From contig CAZPJY010000002.1 in NCBI GenBank assembly GCA_964587045.1, positions 1 to 64,000 on the forward strand: a DNA stretch of 64,000 bases, given 5' to 3'. Positions 9,352 through 56,468 of this stretch are shown piece by piece. This stretch comes from an uncultured Methanosarcinales archaeon. GTDB taxonomy: Archaea; Nanobdellota; Nanobdellia; Woesearchaeales; CAZPJY01. The notes beneath the pieces are model-generated. The model was given only the letters and a program-made list of their open reading frames with translations, made no database searches and had not been told where the DNA came from. The position numbers and the translations under genes are program-made. Position 1 is the first letter of the stretch; each line of letters begins with the position of its first letter.

Positions 9352-9840
9352 ATGCGAAAAATTGCCAAGCTAATCCTTACCAGTGCACTTTCTCTATTCA
9401 TGGCAACACCCTTGGCAGCTGGTGATAAGGACCACAACTCGACTGTCAACGTCTGCATGGGAGTCTCCATCCAGGAGGGAAACCATGAGAACCATACCTT
9501 CACAGGAGGGGGCATCGCCCTTCGCCTTTGCAAGAGAAGCACTTACCTAGAGAGCAGGATCGACACCTTCAACGGAATCCTAGGAGACCATTCAATTTCA
9601 TCGATTGGCCTGAAATCCTACCTCTTCAGCGATGCCAGCCTGAATCCTTACGCAGGGGCCGGCGCTGAGTACAGGTTCTACCCGGTCGGCGATGGGGTGA
9701 TCAACCCGTATGTCAAGGGGGGTCTGAAGCTGTTCGACCTGGTTTATTTCGAGTACCAGCACAACATCGGGCAAGACAAGAACACTTACTATCCCAACTT
9801 TGATCTCGCAAGGGTTGGACTCGAGTTTAAAATCAGGTAA
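9352..9840 (+). CDS. Secreted protein resembling an 8-stranded outer-membrane beta-barrel (OmpA/OmpW-like)
   Basis: Sec signal peptide; LNPYAGAGAEYRF, NPYVKGGLK, VYFEYQH and terminal ARVGLEFKI amphipathic strands. Confidence 0.55.
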   Translation: MRKIAKLILTSALSLFMATPLAAGDKDHNSTVNVCMGVSIQEGNHENHTFTGGGIALRLCKRSTYLESRIDTFNGILGDHSISSIGLKSYLFSDASLNPYAGAGAEYRFYPVGDGVINPYVKGGLKLFDLVYFEYQHNIGQDKNTYYPNFDLARVGLEFKIR

Positions 9841-37392: not shown

Positions 37393-38055
37393 TTATACGT
37401 TTCGGTGGAGGGCCGCGTCGATCAGTCCAAGGAGCGTGTCAGAGTCGCTGCTGTGGTACATTATCTCGCCCTGCCCGTCCACAAGCCGCCAGTCCTTGCT
37501 CTCTATCCGGAGCTTGTTCCCCTTGTAGTGCGGGAAGTACTCCTCGTACAGCTGGTTGAGGTCTGCTAGGTAGGTGTCGCCGTCAGCCAGAAGGCCCCGT
37601 TCGCCCTCCCTCACGCGTCCTTCCCGGTTCAGGCGGTTGCGGATGCGCGCCTTGAGATCATCCACTTCGGTGAAAGGGTAGATTACCAGGTCGGGCTCTG
37701 GAATCTTGAGCTTCATCGCGTCGTACTGGTGGGTGATGGTCATCTTCTCAGCCCTTGACAAGAAGCCGTCCCTGTAGTTCTTCTCTGTGAAGATGTGGAT
37801 ATCTTCTGCCATCAGCCTGTCGGTCACAGCCGAGAGAGGAGAGATGGTCATGTGCCACCAGTTTCGGAACCTGCTTGACAGGAAGAATATCTGGGTGTTG
37901 TAAGCGTGCTCCTTTCGGTCGTTGTAGTAGAAGTTCAGGACGAGCTCGTTGACCTCCTCGGGGTAGAACTCGAAGTTCCAGCGCTTCTGGATCAGCTTGC
38001 AAAGCGTGGTCTTGCCTGCTGAGATGTTTCCCATCACGCCGATTATCCGTTTCAT
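37393..38055 (-). CDS. Deoxynucleoside kinase
   Basis: GNISAGKTT, FY.D..., Q.FFL..R, DR...ED, PDLVIY, RI..R.R..E. Confidence 0.9.
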   Translation of the reverse strand: MKRIIGVMGNISAGKTTLCKLIQKRWNFEFYPEEVNELVLNFYYNDRKEHAYNTQIFFLSSRFRNWWHMTISPLSAVTDRLMAEDIHIFTEKNYRDGFLSRAEKMTITHQYDAMKLKIPEPDLVIYPFTEVDDLKARIRNRLNREGRVREGERGLLADGDTYLADLNQLYEEYFPHYKGNKLRIESKDWRLVDGQGEIMYHSSDSDTLLGLIDAALHRNV

Positions 38056-38795
38056 CTGAACAGCCGCTCCATGTCAGGTATCAGCTTCACCATCTCTTCG
38101 ACGACGAACTCAAGACCCTCATCGGTGCGTATGTCATAGGTCTGGGTGTCGATTACGATCTTTGGGAACTCGCACTCCACGATCCAGGGCCTGTAAAGGT
38201 TATCCAGCTCTTTTAGGTAGGTATTCTCGGGCTTGGCGAGCTCGAATTCCTCGACGCGCTCGCGCTCCAGTATCCTCCTCTTAAGGGTCGGCACGTCGCT
38301 TTCCATGTAGATGATGAGATCGGGTTTGGGCTTGCTCTCCATGTGCAGCTTGAAGAAATAGTTGTACCTCTCCAGGTCCGCCTGCGATATGTAGCCGTGG
38401 TTCCTTGAGTTCTGGGTGAAGAGCTGGTCCTCGTAGATGCTCCTGTCCTGGACCACTGACGCCTCTCCTTTCCTAAGCATCTTATCGATCACCGTTAGGT
38501 CGAGCAGCCTGGTGAAGAAATAGGCCTCCTGCAGCGTGAAGCCCCAGTACTCAGCCTCCTGCTTGGCCTTCTGGAAGGCCTCGAAGTTGGTCTTCTCAAG
38601 CTTTTCCGCCTTAACCTTCTCGTACTCGATGACCGCGTCATAGTACTCCTCCAGGTAGCGGTGCTTCTTTACGTAGTCCACCTGCTCGAGGAAGGCGACG
38701 AGGTTCCCGTCGGTGTGCTCCTCAAGCCTCCTGGCGAGCGTGGTCTTGCCCGCGCCGATGTTGCCTGCCACAGATATGAAATAGTTCTTCATCAT
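38052..38795 (-). CDS. Deoxynucleoside kinase
   Basis: GNIGAGKTT, QDRSIYED, KPDLIIY, RILERER..E, YL..L...Y. Confidence 0.9.
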   Translation of the reverse strand: MMKNYFISVAGNIGAGKTTLARRLEEHTDGNLVAFLEQVDYVKKHRYLEEYYDAVIEYEKVKAEKLEKTNFEAFQKAKQEAEYWGFTLQEAYFFTRLLDLTVIDKMLRKGEASVVQDRSIYEDQLFTQNSRNHGYISQADLERYNYFFKLHMESKPKPDLIIYMESDVPTLKRRILERERVEEFELAKPENTYLKELDNLYRPWIVECEFPKIVIDTQTYDIRTDEGLEFVVEEMVKLIPDMERLFR

Positions 38796-38886
38796 GACCC
38801 CCCGAACAAGATGCTGATTTGGCACAGCTTATTAATATGTGTATCGCGATAGATTTAAATAGAGACTTTCGTTCCATTGACGCTAC

Positions 38887-38990: not shown

Positions 38991-39905
38991 TTAATGATAA
39001 AAATTCCCATGCTTTGTCAGAAGTGCGCATATGAACTTGTTGTTGTCCAAGAAGAAGCCACCAAATTGATTATTTATCAGCTCATCGCGAAATCGCTCCC
39101 GGCAAGGCTTTCTGGATTTAAAGGTGAAAATGCGGTCACCTATCTTGACTCGTTTTGTTTTGTTGACTAACCAGGGGACATTCTGCACCTTGAAGCTGCC
39201 TTCAATCATCTCATATTCTTCGTCGAAAGTGATATCCACCTGATCTATCTCGAACCCAAGCTTCTTGGCCCCTCCTGTGAATCCCTCTTTATAATCGCTA
39301 TTCTTGTAGGAGTTGATGAGCCGTCTGATATTCTTCGGTCGCAATTGTGCGGATACATAAAGTTGGTCTTGCGGCCCCATGAATTCATGTACTGGGGTTA
39401 GAATTTCGGTTGGGTCAAAATTGCTGTACGTGGCTCCAAGATAAATGAACCTTGGCGGTTCGCCTGCGAACGACTCAAAGATGGTGTCAAGCGTCCCGAG
39501 ATCTTTGGTGAAGTCACCCAGGTAGTACTGCTGAGGCACATCGTACTCTTTCAGCTGCTCTTGGGTATGCTTTAAGATGATCTCGCTGATATCAATTGCA
39601 GAGTATTGTACATCAATTTCCTTGAAGGCGTCAAGCATTATCTTTGCTTTGTCTCCGGCGCCGGGACCTAAATCAACTATGCGCATGGAAGGGTAATGCG
39701 CAGCCATCGCGAGTATGCGTTTCAGCAGATCTGTCTCAGGTATGATCATCTGCTTCCTGTACTCCTCCTCTTCATGGATTGAGAGATAGGCCTCGGCTTG
39801 CTCCTTGCTTGCATACCAAGTCTTGCTGTCGTCTAGGTGGTGCTCATCACCTATGAGGTACATTGAATCTATAAGCTCTTGCTGCTCCTTTAAATCGGTT
39901 ATCAT
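38991..39905 (-). CDS. SAM-dependent methyltransferase, EgtD-like (Methyltransf_33)
   Basis: VDLGPGAGDKA, YSAIDIS, GDFT, YLGATYSNF. Confidence 0.78.
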   Translation of the reverse strand: MITDLKEQQELIDSMYLIGDEHHLDDSKTWYASKEQAEAYLSIHEEEEYRKQMIIPETDLLKRILAMAAHYPSMRIVDLGPGAGDKAKIMLDAFKEIDVQYSAIDISEIILKHTQEQLKEYDVPQQYYLGDFTKDLGTLDTIFESFAGEPPRFIYLGATYSNFDPTEILTPVHEFMGPQDQLYVSAQLRPKNIRRLINSYKNSDYKEGFTGGAKKLGFEIDQVDITFDEEYEMIEGSFKVQNVPWLVNKTKRVKIGDRIFTFKSRKPCRERFRDELINNQFGGFFLDNNKFICALLTKHGNFYH

Positions 39906-40008
39906 GTTATCACCAAATAGTGGTATTATATTTGATATTATTAATTTTTCTTATAATTTTTTTATAAAAACAAAATATTGATATAGTAATTGTTGCAATT
40001 TAATAATT

Positions 40009-40953
40009 ATGCAATTGGATGCCAAGGACAGGAAAATACTGCAGGCCCTGGACCAGGACGTGAGATCCTCCTTCTCCAAGATTGGAAAATATGCACGCAT
40101 CTCAAAGGAAGTAGCGCAGTACAGGGTCAAACAGCTCCAGAAGAGGGGAATCATCACCAACTTCTGGGCCATTCCGAGGATTGGCACAGGCAACCGCGTC
40201 TACAAATTGCTCTTGAAGAATAGGAGCCTCAGTAGCGATAAAAAAAAGGAATTTATTGATTTCTGTGTTGGCAACAAAGCTGTCTCTTGGTTTGCCCAGA
40301 CTGAAGGCAACTGGGATTTTGTGGTCTCCTCATATGTGCGGGATGACACAACCTTCTCAGAGTTCGCAATTTCGCTACTTGACCGATTTGGGTCTTATTT
40401 TAAGGAAAAGCAAATTGTTAAAGCGACTGGCCTCATCCTTCTCAATGAGAAGTACCTTTATGATACGCCAATCGCCAAGGTAACCGAGGATTCGTTCCTC
40501 AAACCTATCGAGAAAATAGATAGCCGCGACCAGGCGATAATTAGGATGCTTGCGAACAACGCGAGGGCGTCCTTTACTTATATGGCAAAGGAACTTGGTA
40601 TAACGGCTGAGGCTGTTAGGGCTCGGTTTAAAACGATAATGCAGCGGAAATTGATTATTGGCATGAATCCGCGCATCAGCCATGAGAAAATAGGACTTCA
40701 GTATTATCACTTGTTCATCAGCATAAGAAATTATGGAGCGAGGGATACGTTGCTCAAATTCTACCAGCAGCACCCAAAATGTGTTTTCTTAATGAAACAC
40801 ATAGGTTGCTATGACTTACACCTTGAACTGGTGATGAAGCATGATGAAGTCGAATCAGTTATTGACGAGCTTGCTTTACGTTTCGGCTCTGACATAGAGT
40901 CCTATGAGTTGCTGCGGATTCAGAAAGAGCATTTAATGATTGTTACAAGGTGA
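40009..40953 (+). CDS. Tandem (double) Lrp/AsnC regulator
   Basis: LDAKDRKILQALDQDVR and IDSRDQAIIRMLANNAR. Confidence 0.88.
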   Translation: MQLDAKDRKILQALDQDVRSSFSKIGKYARISKEVAQYRVKQLQKRGIITNFWAIPRIGTGNRVYKLLLKNRSLSSDKKKEFIDFCVGNKAVSWFAQTEGNWDFVVSSYVRDDTTFSEFAISLLDRFGSYFKEKQIVKATGLILLNEKYLYDTPIAKVTEDSFLKPIEKIDSRDQAIIRMLANNARASFTYMAKELGITAEAVRARFKTIMQRKLIIGMNPRISHEKIGLQYYHLFISIRNYGARDTLLKFYQQHPKCVFLMKHIGCYDLHLELVMKHDEVESVIDELALRFGSDIESYELLRIQKEHLMIVTR

Positions 40954-41008
40954 GATGTCAGCATTTTGGTAGTAAGTTTAAAACTTCTCCCCGCCAGTAT
41001 TCCTCTTT

Positions 41009-41368
41009 TTATGACCAATGCTCCTGTAACTTTCCTACAATATCGCAGAGCTTCTCACCGGTGTCGAAGTCCAACTTGTCCTGCTTTACGAGCTCCTCCA
41101 GCCTAAACAGCACGCCAGCTGCGTTGATGTATGAATTCTTGTGTCTCTCGATATCCTTTTGGTTCCGCTGCTCGTCCACCTGCTCTGAGATTCCGGCTTC
41201 GATGTAAGATAACCTAAGCTCAATTTGCTTATAGAGGGTTCTCTTCTCCATCTCAACATATTCGAGAAAATCAAGGAAAGGCATCTGCTGGACTTCCCCA
41301 TCAAGTTTTAAGTACTCCGACCTGATGCTTTCTACTGCCTCATGAAGGTAGTATTCGCTCGCTTTCAT
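41009..41368 (-). CDS. Helical hypothetical protein (119 aa) coupled to the LysM gene
   Basis: ATG 41368 (MKASEYYLHEAV) overlaps the upstream stop as ATGA. Confidence 0.6.
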   Translation of the reverse strand: MKASEYYLHEAVESIRSEYLKLDGEVQQMPFLDFLEYVEMEKRTLYKQIELRLSYIEAGISEQVDEQRNQKDIERHKNSYINAAGVLFRLEELVKQDKLDFDTGEKLCDIVGKLQEHWS

Positions 41369-42453
41369 AGGTTCAGCCACACCTTTGCCGAATGGATGGG
41401 ATTGTTGCTCGCGCTCCTTCCCCACTGGTTGGCCTCGTGCCCGTACTCGTAGCCCACTCCGAACTTGCCAAGGTCGGCTCCGATGCCGTAGGTCAGCTTG
41501 AGCATCTCGAAGTCCTTGCCTGCGAAGAACCACTCGCCGAAGCCCACCAGCTTCCAGGGCAGCTTGACCCAGTAGTCCATCTCCCACCTGTCGGGCCCGT
41601 TGTCGTCCTCCTTCCCGCTCACCCAGTAGTAGTTGAACTTCTGGCCGCCTGTTATGCGTATCTTAACCTCATCGTGGCTTACCCCTCCTGAGAAGCCTGC
41701 GGTCCCGAAGCCGTCCAGCGACAGGCTGTTGTCCCGAAAGGATGTGTTCATCGCACCGACGCTCCCTGTGAGGTCAAGATAAAATATGCCTGAGCTGAGC
41801 AGGTTGCGGAACAGCCTGAACTCGCTCCTAGCGACAGCGTTCCTGCCGTGCCTGAACTTGAAGGCCGTCCCAGAGTGTTCCTTGGCCAGGCCCTGCTGGT
41901 ACTTCTTGCCGAACGTGCCCTGCAGGATCAGTTCGGGCATCTTGTGGTCGGGCCCTTCGATCTTGGGGTTGTAAATCAAAGAGAATGTCAGCTTGTCGAT
42001 GGACACGCCTTCCTTCCTGTTATGGTAGGCGTACCACTTGTTCACCTCATTTGCGTGGTCCAGCGCGTAGGGCAAGTTGTTGATCGCCACGATGATACGC
42101 CTCTGGTTTCGGATCACCTCGTCGAACTTGCCGTCGATGCTCTTCAGGAACGGCGCTGGGAACTTCGCTTCCGGCCTTTCCTGTTTTATCTTCTTTTCGA
42201 TGACGCTCGGGAACGGAACGTTGATCGTCTGTCCCTCCTTGATCAGGTGCGGGTCCTCGATGTCAGGATTGTACTCCTTGTAGATGTACTCCCAGTGCAT
42301 CGGGTTGCCGTCGTTTTTCTCTGCAATCTGTGACAGCGTATCCCCCTCCCTTACCTTGTACTTGTAACAGTCCTGTTGCTGCGCCTGGGCCCCGAACGTC
42401 AGCCCGAGGACTCCCAGCCCCACCAGTCCGTATTTTGTGATCCTGTTCATCAT
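41365..42453 (-). CDS. Secreted LysM protein with predicted C-terminal beta-barrel
   Basis: Signal AQA/QQQ; LysM YKVREGDTLSQIA...NPDIEDPHLIKEGQTINVP; series of amphipathic Gly/aromatic strands; SD GAGGTGA. Confidence 0.75.
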   Translation of the reverse strand: MMNRITKYGLVGLGVLGLTFGAQAQQQDCYKYKVREGDTLSQIAEKNDGNPMHWEYIYKEYNPDIEDPHLIKEGQTINVPFPSVIEKKIKQERPEAKFPAPFLKSIDGKFDEVIRNQRRIIVAINNLPYALDHANEVNKWYAYHNRKEGVSIDKLTFSLIYNPKIEGPDHKMPELILQGTFGKKYQQGLAKEHSGTAFKFRHGRNAVARSEFRLFRNLLSSGIFYLDLTGSVGAMNTSFRDNSLSLDGFGTAGFSGGVSHDEVKIRITGGQKFNYYWVSGKEDDNGPDRWEMDYWVKLPWKLVGFGEWFFAGKDFEMLKLTYGIGADLGKFGVGYEYGHEANQWGRSASNNPIHSAKVWLNL

Positions 42454-42531
42454 GATTCACCTCGACGATCGGCTGGAAAACCTGTTATATTTAAGTATAT
42501 GTTTTTAAAGGGAAGAGGCCTTCCACCACTC

Positions 42532-43176
42532 ATGAGACTGCTGGGCATCGACGAGGCAGGGAGGGGGCCGGTCATCGGTCCGCTAGCCATCGCAGGGGTT
42601 GTCGTCGAGGATGAGGCGCCCCTGATCAGGTTGGGCGTCAAGGACTCAAAGCAGCTAACTCCGGAGGAGAGGGAAAAGCTCTTCGACAAGATAATCAAAA
42701 GCAGCATTGACCATTCCATAGCGCTTGTGGTGCCTGAGGAGATAGACGCGTTCCTCAGCTGGTCGAATCTCAACAGGCTCGAGGCGCACACGATGGCTAA
42801 GGTGATAGCGGAGCTGAAGCCTGACAGCATCATCCTCGACCTTCCCGGGAGGGACCCTTCCAAGTACCTCAACTACATGAGGGAGAAGGTATCCCTGCCG
42901 ACGAGCGTGACAGCTGAGAACAAGGCAGACGAGCGCTACCCTGTTGTGAGCGCCGCCTCAATCCTTGCCAAGGTGGCGCGCGACCGCGAGATAGAGAAGC
43001 TGAAAAGTCGGTTCGGCGTGGAGTTCGGAAGCGGCTACCCAGCAGACCCCATGACCAAGGCCTTCCTAAAAGAGAGGTGGGACGACCCCAAGCTTCGGTC
43101 CCTGTTCAGGACCAGCTGGGAGCCGTGGAAGGAGCTCAAGCGCAGCTCGTCCCAGTCCAGCCTCGACTCATGGTAA
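42532..43176 (+). CDS. rnhB: Ribonuclease HII
   Basis: GIDEAGRGPVIGP, DSKQL, KAD..YPVVSAASILAKV.RD, GSGYP.DP.T; PIP-like QSSLDSW. Confidence 0.95.
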   Translation: MRLLGIDEAGRGPVIGPLAIAGVVVEDEAPLIRLGVKDSKQLTPEEREKLFDKIIKSSIDHSIALVVPEEIDAFLSWSNLNRLEAHTMAKVIAELKPDSIILDLPGRDPSKYLNYMREKVSLPTSVTAENKADERYPVVSAASILAKVARDREIEKLKSRFGVEFGSGYPADPMTKAFLKERWDDPKLRSLFRTSWEPWKELKRSSSQSSLDSW

Positions 43177-43210
43177 TGTTTTTATATCAGATGAATAGAG
43201 CTTGATTCCC

Positions 43211-44044
43211 ATGACTTCATACAAGGACGTGTCGGAAAAGGATCTGAGACCCCTGCTAAGCCAGGGATTCTACCTCGATGAGGCCAAGACCCCGCAGGAG
43301 GTCATACGCCTGAAAGGGCCAGCGACCCTGATACTCTACCAGAACGGGAGGCTGCTGGTCCAGGGGAACCCAGTGCTGCTCAAGGCTGTGGAGGGCCAGC
43401 TCGAGGAGCTGGGGCTTGAGCCTGCCGAAAAAGAATCTGCGGAGAAGAGGTACATGGACAAGAAAGGGATCATCATAGGAAGCGACGAATCCCTGAAGGG
43501 AGACACTTTCGGCGGGCTCGTTGTTGCCGCGGTCAAGTGCGACGACAACACCAGGCTTGAGCTGATGCAGAACGGTGTGACCGACTCAAAGCGAATCGCC
43601 GACGAGCGGATTCCCGACCTGGCAAGGATAATCAAGAAGAGGTGCAGGTACCATATCCGGGACCTGCCTCCTGAAGAGTACAACAAGCACAACATGACCA
43701 TCCTCCTCAACAGGCTTCACAGCGAATGCGTAAACGCCCTGCTGCCCGCTGACAAGATAGTCATAGACAAGTACCCAGGATGCGACCTGCCTGCTACCCT
43801 GTTGCCCAGGGCGGAGCTGGAGTACGTCGAAGTGGCCGCAGCATCCATACTCGCAAGGGAAGCAGCCATAGCCCAGTTCGAGCGGATGTCCGAGGAGCTC
43901 GGGTTCGAAGTGCCCAAGGGCAGCTCCCACGTCGAAGACGCGCTCAGGAGGCTTATCGAGAAGAGGGCCCCCTTCAACAGGTTCGTGAAGATGCATTTCA
44001 TGAACGTGAAGGAGGCCATACGGCGCTACGGAGAGGAAGCATAA
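43211..44044 (+). CDS. rnhC: Ribonuclease HIII
   Basis: N-terminal TBP-like (ILYQNGRLLVQG); IGSDESLKGDTFGGLVV, DSK, AE...VAAASILAR, PKG, KMHF. Confidence 0.82.
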   Translation: MTSYKDVSEKDLRPLLSQGFYLDEAKTPQEVIRLKGPATLILYQNGRLLVQGNPVLLKAVEGQLEELGLEPAEKESAEKRYMDKKGIIIGSDESLKGDTFGGLVVAAVKCDDNTRLELMQNGVTDSKRIADERIPDLARIIKKRCRYHIRDLPPEEYNKHNMTILLNRLHSECVNALLPADKIVIDKYPGCDLPATLLPRAELEYVEVAAASILAREAAIAQFERMSEELGFEVPKGSSHVEDALRRLIEKRAPFNRFVKMHFMNVKEAIRRYGEEA

Positions 44045-54603: not shown

Positions 54604-55159
54604 TGGCATCCTCCAAGACGTCATCAAATGCGTGGTACAGCACAAACAGACCTGCTGAATTGATAGTGAGGTACTCGGAGGTAAGGGTGCTGGTCCTGCC
54701 GAACACCCTGTAAGTGGAAAAAAGGCGAAGCTCTGGATTTGGGCTCTCCTTGAGGTCTTGTACCCTGATGTCGTTTAGGAACTGCTTCTTCTCACGGCTG
54801 AAGTCGATACTGTAGAATTTCTTTCTGAGCTTCCCCAATGACAGCCTGTCAACCAGGAAACGGATTGAACCGTTGTCGTAGTGATCAAGGAACTTCTCAA
54901 GATGCTTTTTGCCGGTATCAATGATGTAATTTTTTGAAAGTGCTGGATCCAGGCACAGGTCACACTCCGGGCCCTGGTAATCGAATTCCTTTTCTGGGTG
55001 GTCGAGCATCGCCTGCCTCTGGGCTGAGAACCTGATTTTCTCTTCCCACGACAGGTCGAAATCCCGCGACCGCTCAGTGAGGGCGCTGATTATCTTGTCT
55101 TGGTTTTCGTGTAGGAACCTGCTGACGTGTTGGCAGTATAAGCTATTGGTTTTTTCCAT
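54596..55159 (-). CDS. Hypothetical protein (second gene of the transglycosylase operon)
   Basis: SD AGGTGA; overlaps the transglycosylase 3' end; one CxxC. Confidence 0.6.
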   Translation of the reverse strand: MEKTNSLYCQHVSRFLHENQDKIISALTERSRDFDLSWEEKIRFSAQRQAMLDHPEKEFDYQGPECDLCLDPALSKNYIIDTGKKHLEKFLDHYDNGSIRFLVDRLSLGKLRKKFYSIDFSREKKQFLNDIRVQDLKESPNPELRLFSTYRVFGRTSTLTSEYLTINSAGLFVLYHAFDDVLEDANG

Positions 55160-56468
55160 GATCTCTCACCTTCAGTTTTGCTCCTTCCAGGATTTTATGG
55201 TTTTTGAGTCCGTTCCATGCCATGATGTCAGATATGGATGTTCCGTACATGCGTGACAGGCGTCCAAGGGTCTCACCCTTCTTCACTATGTGGTGCTCCC
55301 CGGTATTTTCGGCCACGTTGATTTCGTAGAATTCCTTCGGGTCCATGAAAAGTTTGGGGTCCATCTTCACTGGCAGGCTCTCTTCTTGAGGCCCTCCGAA
55401 CAGGAAGGACATGGCATAGACCTTCCCGACGTATCTCTGTGTTTGCTCGAGGAACAGGTCTTTCATGACCCAGTAGTTGTTGGTCCGCATCTTCCTCCTG
55501 ACATCGTCGACGGTCTTCCTTCCGCAGTTGTACGCTGCGAGCGCAAGTGGGAAGGCCATTTGTTCTGGGTACTGCTCGTTTGAGAGCTCCTTTCTGTAGT
55601 ATTCGAAGTTGTCTAGGAGATGTTTTGTTCCAGCTTTGACGTTGCCTTTCAATTTCAATACGTTCTCTCCGTAGAGCTCGCCGGTCTCCTTGAGGACCTG
55701 CAGAAAACCGTAGGCTTTCGCCTTCGATTTGATGACTTTTCCGTCCTTGGTGTGGTAACCTTGGCTCTCGACTACCGCAAGCCCCTTTACCAGGGCCAGG
55801 TCAAGGTCGAGGTCATCGCACATGTCTTTTAGGATATCATTGTGCTGTTCGACCCTGTCAACGATTTCTTCATAAGTCCTGACCTCGAATATGGTGTTCA
55901 AGGCCTTGTAGTACTCAGCATATATGGTGTTCTCGACACCTTGTGTGTATTGGTCTGACGTCCAGATCAGCTTATCGATTCCGACCGCTTCGATCTTTTC
56001 GAATACCTCTTTGTTCGGGAAGAGGGTTTGCCTCTGTGCGATGTAGGCCTTGTTGATGGTTTCGGTCTTGGCAGCTATATCAGATATGGTCAGGGCGGTG
56101 TAGACAGCTGCGGGCAGTAGAATCGCGGAAGCTGCGTAGGCTGTTCTGTACATCCCCCGGACTGCGCCGCCCTTGTTGGTGTCGTAATCGTCGTAGGATG
56201 CTGAGAGCCTGTCAATCTTCTGCCTGTTCCTGCTCACGATGTTGGTTGCGCCTTTCGCTGCCAGCCCGGTGAGTCCTCCCAACACGATGTATGCTATGCC
56301 CAGAGCGCTCGGATTGCTCTGCATGGTGACCGTGTCGGTCATCTTGTGCGCCCCTATCACCCCTCCTATCACCGGGATGGATATCGCTGATGCGTAGAGG
56401 GCTGCTTTGAACCAGTTGGTCTTCCTGCCGATTCTCCTTTTCCTGATCTCTTCTTCTGTCTTGCGCAT
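55143..56468 (-). CDS. Membrane-anchored GH23 lytic transglycosylase with C-terminal LysM (MltD-like)
   Basis: 3 N-terminal TM; LAVVES (catalytic Glu), AYGFLQ, ALAAYNCG, QTQRYVGKV; LysM HIVKKGETL..LS..YG.SISDIMAWNGL. Confidence 0.88.
   Translation of the reverse strand: MRKTEEEIRKRRIGRKTNWFKAALYASAISIPVIGGVIGAHKMTDTVTMQSNPSALGIAYIVLGGLTGLAAKGATNIVSRNRQKIDRLSASYDDYDTNKGGAVRGMYRTAYAASAILLPAAVYTALTISDIAAKTETINKAYIAQRQTLFPNKEVFEKIEAVGIDKLIWTSDQYTQGVENTIYAEYYKALNTIFEVRTYEEIVDRVEQHNDILKDMCDDLDLDLALVKGLAVVESQGYHTKDGKVIKSKAKAYGFLQVLKETGELYGENVLKLKGNVKAGTKHLLDNFEYYRKELSNEQYPEQMAFPLALAAYNCGRKTVDDVRRKMRTNNYWVMKDLFLEQTQRYVGKVYAMSFLFGGPQEESLPVKMDPKLFMDPKEFYEINVAENTGEHHIVKKGETLGRLSRMYGTSISDIMAWNGLKNHKILEGAKLKVRDHGKNQ

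Follow-up and report, generated by a model that had tools for sequence, protein, structure and literature searches.

A predicted secreted LysM protein with an orphan tail of outer-membrane-protein-like sequence character in a DPANN-type archaeon

We analysed a 64,000-nucleotide stretch of DNA (the whole of which is referred to below as the window) from an uncultured archaeon placed in the Woesearchaeales (GenBank assembly GCA_964587045.1, contig CAZPJY010000002.1, positions 1 to 64,000), focusing on positions 41009-42453. This span consists of two minus-strand open reading frames (ORFs), P0001 (362 amino acids, aa) and P0002 (119 aa). P0001 combines a predicted export signal with a LysM domain, a basic middle region and a beta-rich tail rich in Gly and aromatic residues. 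In our best reading, it is an orphan native to a DPANN-type archaeon with a small genome, is exported through Sec, and would form part of a kit for contacting bacterial envelopes. We tentatively favour the possibility that it acts as an exported, murein-docking envelope effector with a beta tail resembling outer-membrane proteins. The original prediction had gone further and described the protein as a LysM domain joined by a helical linker to an outer-membrane beta-barrel.

Export signal, LysM domain and middle region

The Sec-type signal peptide covers residues 1-24 (42382..42453, minus strand) with predicted cleavage at AQA|QQQ. It was called by eye and by a crude rule: the n-region MMNRITK is followed by a Gly/Leu-rich h-region, YGLVGLGVLGLTFG, and then by AQA|QQQ. 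The export signal that had been proposed is therefore seen by eye and flagged by the rule as well. The mature part contains no further hydrophobic 19-mer (maximum Kyte-Doolittle mean 0.94). We rejected a lipoprotein, since the cleavage site lacks a lipobox Cys, and an archaeal sorting anchor at the C-terminus, where no hydrophobic helix is found.

The LysM domain is located at residues 32-80 (42214..42360, minus strand). The match to Pfam PF01476 spans all 43 profile positions (1-43) at E 2.2e-6, and its 28 bits exceed the curated cut-off of 20.9, which confirms the canonical LysM of the original prediction. The genome-wide LysM search returns the same site with E 7.9e-7, and LysM segments of PHROG endolysins match P0001 at E 2.5e-10. 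The domain starts with Y-x-V-x-x-G-D-T-L-x-x-I-A and ends with G-Q-x-I-x-V-P, a motif pair typical of LysM.

The middle region (residues 95-214; 41812..42171, minus strand) is basic (pI 9.7) and orphan, with two short predicted helices followed by strands. The helices are found at residues 110-116 and 127-144 of the AlphaFold2 model with low confidence (predicted local distance difference test, pLDDT, <50), and an amphipathic-helix moment is seen around residues 102-121. The proposed helical linker is weakly supported to this extent; it is not a long stalk, because residues 150-214 are modelled with strands.

Orphan status of residues 85-362 and of P0002

Based on sequence searches, residues 85-362 of P0001 are an orphan. 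The word-index search of 5.8 billion clusters gave no relative for this region, and the exhaustive HMMER (phmmer) scan of 1.84 billion representative proteins found only the protein itself. The best match among 60 relatives searched in six frames has E 0.015, which is not credible. A search of genome contigs gave 212 pattern matches, of which 0 were confirmed, and there is no paralogue in the proteome of the archaeon (best E 0.76 and 0.11). Concerning known domains, residues 85-362 have no Pfam match at E<=10 and the whole protein matches only LysM at E<=0.1. Nothing outside LysM is found in NCBIfam (E<=1) or among PDB sequences (E<=10), and PHROGs (E<=1) give no match outside residues 4-113. 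Also, no murein-cleaving domain (SLT, M15, M23, NlpC/P60, amidase) is found beside the LysM in Pfam, NCBIfam or PHROGs. The distribution of homologues, by which the original prediction was to be checked, is empty, since none of the searches returned a relative of the tail. P0002, for which no homologue was found, is likewise an orphan.

Sequence character of the tail

The tail comprises residues 215-362 (41368..41811, minus strand) and ends in ...SAKVWLNL. It contains 14.9% Gly and 16.8% F+W+Y, has no Cys, and ~10 alternating strands can be threaded through it. The eight strand strings listed in the original prediction are all present, at residues 224-233, 250-259, 263-277, 290-298, 302-310, 318-328, 331-339 and 355-362. 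In a language-model search of residues 215-362, which was restricted to named clusters, bacterial outer-membrane barrel families make up all ten of the top named cluster sets, with scores of 0.90-0.93. These include NfrA_C (0.93), Channel_Tsx/OmpK (0.92), OmpG with BcsS, PLA1 and DUF7840 (0.91 tier) and KdgM (0.90), and a common family or clan unites the ten best family-bearing neighbours. In the search with residues 95-362, the name 'Outer membrane protein' is carried by two of the three top clusters (0.88).

A second measure was a composition log-odds score trained on six E. coli barrels versus 126 other E. coli proteins. The best 148-aa window of P0001 (residues 214-361) scores 0.074, which lies within the leave-one-out range of the six barrels (0.061-0.155) and is attained by just one of the 126 non-barrel controls. 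In automatically picked alternating 9-mers, the Gly fraction of the polar face is 0.21 in the tail, 0.20 in pooled barrels and 0.10 in pooled soluble periplasmic controls, and the aromatic fraction of the hydrophobic face is 0.30, 0.32 and 0.17, respectively. Archaeal surface proteins have a polar-face Gly fraction of 0-0.17 and are rich in Ser/Thr/Asn/Gln. Threading by hand gives ten strands from residue 221 to residue 362; this arrangement would place the long loops 281-289 and 340-354 on one side and the termini on the opposite side, as in bacterial barrels.

Many results weigh against a barrel. AlphaFold2, which was run without an alignment because no homologue exists to align, gives no fold (pLDDT 36.3 for the whole of P0001 and 30.8 for residues 150-362). 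The language-model neighbours share 117-141 of 256 features with the tail, versus ~170 typical within one family, and the null set is not negligible: among shuffled proteins, 4-10% attain 0.9 and a third show ten-of-ten agreement. Within the proteome of the archaeon the composition score ranks only 29th of 1340, with giant surface proteins making up most of those ahead, and the language-model and composition measures are not independent, because both lean on amino-acid make-up. P0001 has 6 alternating 9-mers per 148 aa; at least 6 are found in 44 of 133 E. coli controls, and the plain count fails to separate barrels from these controls. On the polar faces, Asp/Glu/Lys/Arg amount to 42% in the tail (6 strands only), versus 17-32% in barrels (22% pooled); the pooled soluble controls, at ~27-28%, also lie below the tail. 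For the proteome-wide application, the combined cut-offs on Gly and aromatics were set with the values of P0001 already known. The C-terminal residue is Leu and not the usual aromatic, and the test for internal (hairpin) repeats is negative, with 71 of 100 shuffles scoring at least as high as the tail. Looking beyond the tail itself, 19 of the 40 LysM-like ORFs of relatives (see below) consist of LysM alone or have unrecognised tails; an unrecognised tail is therefore common and that of P0001 need not be a barrel. Searches for Omp85 gave no match in the genome of the archaeon or in the order (0 of 201 genomes), which leaves the tail with no known insertion machinery. Finally, the murein of a diderm host lies beneath its outer membrane, a difficulty for a topology with the LysM inside and the barrel outside.

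Comparisons with individual barrel families do not place the tail either. PF13505 (OMP_b-brl) has no match in the genome at E<=1, and hhalign of the tail against the alignment of the archaeal Gcw_chp-like proteins described below gives a probability of 0.14%, that is, no relation; three of the six proteins in that alignment also end in Leu. What stands of the barrel claim is an outer-membrane-like sequence character by two partly dependent measures, whereas the fold finds no support from AlphaFold2. We consider a membrane barrel a real possibility for the tail, one we would hesitate to expect.

Murein genes and LysM proteins in the genome and the order

Mur_ligase_M, the transpeptidase domain of penicillin-binding proteins (PBPs) and FtsW/RodA (SEDS) have no match in the genome, which is rated 100% complete; the same searches are positive in bacterial control genomes. 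Judging from this gene content, the archaeon most likely makes neither murein nor pseudomurein. Since there is no match for Mur ligase, PBP or SEDS, the P0001 LysM most likely targets a foreign polymer, and docking to bacterial murein is the role that the genomic context best supports.

The genome contains three LysM ORFs, namely P0001, a protein with SLT and LysM domains and a 147-aa transmembrane protein. The SLT-LysM gene is in the window (55143-56468, minus strand), 13 kb from P0001. Its product of 441 aa starts with a membrane anchor, followed by an SLT domain (Pfam E 5.7e-8) and, at the C-terminus, a LysM (E 1.1e-12), and corresponds to the GH23-type murein cutters described for some Woesearchaeota (PMC9723730). 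The 147-aa protein (C6:23073-23516, plus strand; L014:4073-4516) combines one LysM (Pfam E 4.7e-5) with a transmembrane helix at its N-terminus, and may be a membrane-anchored murein-binding adhesin.

Across the order, LysM is present in 50 of 201 genomes. Murein-hydrolase domains of Pfam are found in 21 of the 40 LysM-like ORFs of relatives: SLT in 16, Peptidase_M15_3 in two, and NlpC/P60, Amidase_2 and M23 in one each. One relative (genome G029) has a 318-aa protein (L029:751-1707, minus strand) in which a signal peptide and LysM precede an acidic linker and a beta-rich tail that is orphan; its layout is the same as that of P0001 and its sequence is dissimilar. One paper describes GH23 lytic transglycosylases carried by Woesearchaeota and proposes predation on bacteria (PMC9723730); another reports the killing of bacteria by archaeal peptidoglycan hydrolases and mentions that LysM is occasionally able to bind chitin (PMC12352652). 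The genome of our archaeon also has a CNNM + CBS + CorC_HlyC protein (C14:15784-17061, minus strand; L073:12807-13934), a type annotated as tlyC 'hemolysin' in the paper on predatory Woesearchaeota (PMC9723730).

Other outer-membrane-type proteins

The genome has further proteins of outer-membrane type. A TolC-like protein of 426 aa (C14:4595-5875, minus strand; L013) matches Pfam OEP with E 5.6e-19; ~900 bp off lies the gene of a 231-aa signal-peptide orphan (C14:2978-3673, plus strand; L013), which ends in ...NYTAGFTTGFEF (…GFTTGFEF). TolC-like (OEP) genes are found in nine of the 201 genomes of the order, eight of them above the cut-off, and some sit on short contigs of poorer bins. A Gcw_chp-like protein of 234 aa with a signal peptide (C4:45932-46636, plus strand; L012:5932-6636) is encoded on an archaeal contig, 5 kb away from eRF1, and a paralogue, also a signal-peptide protein, is found at C15:33577-34236 (plus strand; L063). 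The members of this family are ~220-234 aa long; with the two copies here and relatives in four other genomes, it is present in 5 of 201 genomes. Pfam Gcw_chp, which we take to be a bacterial outer-membrane barrel family, matches two of the six aligned members (best E 9.1e-6), and a profile of the archaeal alignment has no credible match in PDB. One copy ends in ...VTVGLNL, which may be compared with ...KVWLNL in P0001.

Two more secreted candidates look barrel-like. The first, a 162-aa orphan of the window (9352-9840, plus strand), has a signal peptide and barrel-like motifs (…NPYAGAGAEYRF…) and ends in …VGLEFKIR; it has no Pfam match and no homologue in the word-index search. The other (C17:13396-14079, plus strand; 204 aa) carries a signal peptide (…AMA|QN), and its C-terminus, …ARVSVGVDL, alternates. 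A cleavage motif of the form [AGS]-x-A|Q-[DENQT], a pattern noticed post hoc, occurs in 7 of 220 signal-like candidates; four of the seven are P0001, the TolC-like protein, the Gcw_chp-like protein of contig C4 and the barrel-like orphan of contig C17. A Pfam scan of 91 of 189 crude signal-peptide candidates revealed no further outer-membrane family; the crude list is rich in false positives, such as cytoplasmic Rossmann enzymes. On sequence grounds, outer-membrane-type proteins in this order are genuine, sporadic and always without Omp85. Our literature search found no paper linking Woesearchaeota with both an outer membrane and TolC, nor one on outer-membrane beta-barrels in DPANN archaea.

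Concerning secreted proteins of other kinds, a 165-aa His/Arg/Gln-rich protein (C5:13863-14360, minus strand; L015:3863-4360) has an N-terminus, MNKVTKFGL…, that resembles the P0001 signal peptide, MMNRITKYGL…. Its 290-aa neighbour (C5:15059-15931) has a similar basic tail.

Gene structure and neighbourhood

The P0001 coding sequence occupies 41365..42453 (minus strand; 362 aa plus stop) and that of P0002 41009..41368 (minus strand). The P0002 product is acidic (pI 4.8) and has no signal peptide. The ATG of P0002 overlaps the P0001 stop as ATGA at 41365-41368, and this overlap is the sole link between the two genes; an AAGGTG is present ~14 nt upstream of the P0002 ATG. A codon model trained on the 1486 genes called in the 1.6-Mb genome scores positive solely in the annotated frame for both regions, which gives both the appearance of genes. 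The value for P0001 is 0.335 per codon, the 93rd percentile of the 1486 genes, with uniform values over its three parts (0.33-0.35 per codon) and a GC content at third codon positions (GC3) of 0.82. Because its codon usage stands at the 93rd percentile, P0001 appears native rather than a recent import or contamination. Recent horizontal transfer from a bacterium was likewise rejected, given the native codon usage and the lack of any homologue in bacteria. P0002 scores 0.167 per codon (27th percentile) with a GC3 of 0.61, and this lower GC3 suggests a history different from that of P0001.

Upstream of P0001 there is a divergent intergenic region of 78 bp (42454..42531, listed on the minus strand), shared with an RNase HII gene. 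This A/T-rich stretch contains TATA-like runs (tttaaaaa at 42502-42509 and cttaaatataa at 42485-42495) and is a putative promoter of P0001. A Shine-Dalgarno-like GAGGTGA (42457-42463) lies 3 nt ahead of the P0001 ATG. The likely start of the RNase HII gene is at 42532; the Pfam match starts at residue 56 of the long frame. This gene belongs to a pair of adjoining RNase HII-family genes (42532-44044, plus strand), the second of which has a ~90-aa N-terminal extension. On the other side, positions 38991-41368 form a low-GC3 block (0.55-0.61) between high-GC3 genes (0.81-0.82), giving a mosaic composition; the block contains a histidine-methyltransferase-like gene, a double-HTH AsnC-type regulator and P0002. 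Two deoxynucleoside-kinase genes are found in tandem at 37393-38825 (minus strand).

The source genome (1.6 Mb in 50 contigs, 0.53% contamination) is the sole member of its family among the genomes compared. The window carries the archaeal genes Orc1/Cdc6, RtcB, TrmB regulators, archaeal Nre, XPD, ATP-dependent DNA ligase and SRP54, in agreement with the archaeal producer originally assumed. A search of sequencing runs listed one DNA run and no RNA run. The Logan contigs of the DNA run are short and ~3x deep, and the P0002/P0001 junction is spanned by none of the 8 pieces listed, of 15 in all.

Proposed mechanism and alternative explanations

In the mechanism that we propose for the favoured reading, P0001 would be exported, with cleavage of the signal peptide at AQA|QQQ. 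Through its N-terminal LysM it would dock to a polymer containing N-acetylglucosamine (GlcNAc), most probably bacterial murein, to which the membrane-anchored SLT-LysM lytic transglycosylase could open access. A small up-and-down beta domain would be formed by the last ~150 residues, possibly from residue ~150 onwards, and this tail would engage or insert into the membrane of a partner cell as an anchor or leak pore. The murein ligand, the barrel fold and the membrane insertion are what we infer, as would be any role of P0002. Movement of barrel proteins from a predator into prey membranes is reported in PMC12228718. The earlier idea that P0001 inserts into a bacterial outer membrane and grips murein therefore holds up unevenly: foreign murein is a likely LysM ligand, given that Mur, PBP and SEDS genes were not found, and the tail is a candidate barrel by its sequence character, in a genome where Omp85 was not found. 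A broader scenario, which we consider unlikely, is that the archaeon and a scattered few of its order use a bacterial outer-membrane-type set (a TolC-like duct, Gcw_chp-like barrels, secreted orphans and a LysM-barrel) to plug into the envelope of a diderm host, perhaps with the insertion machinery of the host, or to build an outer envelope of their own. P0001 would then grip murein from the periplasmic side with its barrel in the outer membrane.

The most serious alternative, plausible although we lean against it, is that P0001 is a LysM-guided soluble effector, whose water-soluble beta-rich tail would either degrade murein or the envelope as a new enzyme or serve as a further binding module. 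The alternating pattern would then reflect a buried core and not a lipid-facing surface, and the protein would act like the LysM-hydrolases of relatives with an unrecognised catalytic domain. The relatives speak for this, as LysM is combined with a hydrolase in 21 of their 40 ORFs and several of the other 19 resemble unrecognised peptidases by eye. So do the high charge on the polar strand faces of the tail (0.42), a strand count that is not unusual, the 28 extracellular, beta-rich members of the proteome that outrank the tail in barrel-like composition, and the failure to find Omp85 in this genome or the 201 of the order. A soluble enzyme is at odds with the searches, in which no catalytic motif or family appears at Pfam E<=10, PDB E<=10 or PHROG E<=1, and with the ten named language-model neighbour sets, all of which are membrane barrels and none an enzyme. 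The polar-face Gly of the tail is twice that of the soluble controls and unlike that of archaeal surface proteins.

It is distinctly unlikely that P0001 serves the archaeon's own envelope, with the LysM binding an archaeal GlcNAc glycan (S-layer N-glycan core or sheath) or environmental chitin and the tail sitting in an outer layer as an OmpA-type tether. LysM is reported to be able to bind chitin (PMC12352652). The genome holds several outer-membrane-type proteins (TolC-like and Gcw_chp-like proteins and barrel-like secreted orphans), with a cleavage motif common to P0001 and the outer-membrane-type candidates. Double membranes have been described for some DPANN-related archaea. The genome has no detected murein or pseudomurein ligases, P0001 is without a relative in other genomes, and in relatives LysM is paired with murein hydrolases, pointing outward to bacteria. 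Also, an own lineage-wide envelope is disfavoured because the TolC-like (9 of 201) and Gcw_chp-like (5 of 201) genes are too sporadic. Very improbable, finally, is a young or decaying lineage-specific gene that has retained only its LysM, with a tail that is fast-evolving filler and looks like a barrel by compositional chance. This would fit a protein that is entirely orphan outside LysM, has no internal repeat or detectable domain in its tail and lies at a composition boundary (GC3 0.82 versus 0.55-0.61 in the next three genes). It fits poorly with an intact frame of 362 codons whose codon usage is high and uniform over all three parts, with a dedicated A/T-rich putative promoter region and Shine-Dalgarno-like GAGGTGA, and with a well-formed signal peptide and LysM motif.

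Comparison with known systems

P0001 is a member of the LysM family and, by sequence, does not belong to the intimin/invasin, OmpM/SlpA or OmpA-type proteins or to any profiled barrel family. One close comparison is with archaeal LysM murein hydrolases (GH23/SLT-LysM; PMC9723730, PMC12352652), which share with P0001 an export signal or membrane anchor, a LysM and a murein-less archaeal producer. P0001 differs from these in having no recognisable catalytic domain, an N-terminal LysM and another 280 aa that are orphan and barrel-like in sequence character. Thus, as far as sequence can tell, it falls among the secreted LysM proteins of murein-less DPANN archaea, a known kind, with a tail that is new and appears non-enzymatic.

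Intimins consist of a signal peptide, LysM, a 12-stranded barrel and a passenger. The module order of P0001 (signal peptide, LysM, beta-rich region) is that of the intimin/invasin inverse autotransporters. P0001 differs in that it has no IAT_beta match at E<=10, ends at the beta region without a passenger, has a 148-aa tail that is too short for that barrel plus linker, and is produced by an archaeon; with neither an IAT_beta match nor a passenger, membership of the suggested intimin-type LysM-barrels is not supported. OmpM/SlpA and OmpA-type tethers share with P0001 the logic of a wall-binding module joined to a beta-barrel candidate. P0001 lacks their SLH and OmpA_C domains, long coiled coil, trimeric porin-size barrel and any sequence similarity, and membership of the suggested OmpM/SlpA tethers is not supported either, given no SLH match, two short helices with pLDDT <50 and a tail of 148 aa.

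Small outer-membrane barrels (OmpX, OmpW, PagP; Tsx, OmpG, KdgM, PLA1, NfrA_C) match the tail in size, Gly/aromatic composition, polar-face Gly and language-model neighbourhood. They differ from it in that the tail has no profile match, more highly charged polar faces and a terminal Leu, in a genome where Omp85 was not found. A precedent for a barrel of one cell acting in the membrane of prey or host is provided by PopA of Bdellovibrio and PorB of Neisseria (PMC12228718); their producers are diderm bacteria with BAM, and no link to P0001 in sequence or fold was tested for or found.

Significance

Secreted LysM proteins that let wall-less DPANN archaea attack or hold bacteria are a recent theme, represented so far, in the available parts of PMC9723730 and PMC12352652, by wall-cutting enzymes. 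P0001 would add a different working end, namely LysM combined with a non-enzymatic and possibly membrane-active tail. If the tail is soluble, P0001 is one more lineage-specific LysM effector of modest interest. If it is a true barrel, both the folding and placement of such proteins by archaea and the wiring of DPANN into bacterial envelopes become directly testable. Should the unlikely scenario of an outer-membrane-type set used on a diderm host be true, P0001 would be a host-anchoring protein or leak pore and the first murein-tethered barrel from an archaeon. Together with the TolC-like and Gcw_chp-like genes, P0001 makes a concrete, testable case for the use of bacterial outer-membrane-type proteins by some DPANN archaea.

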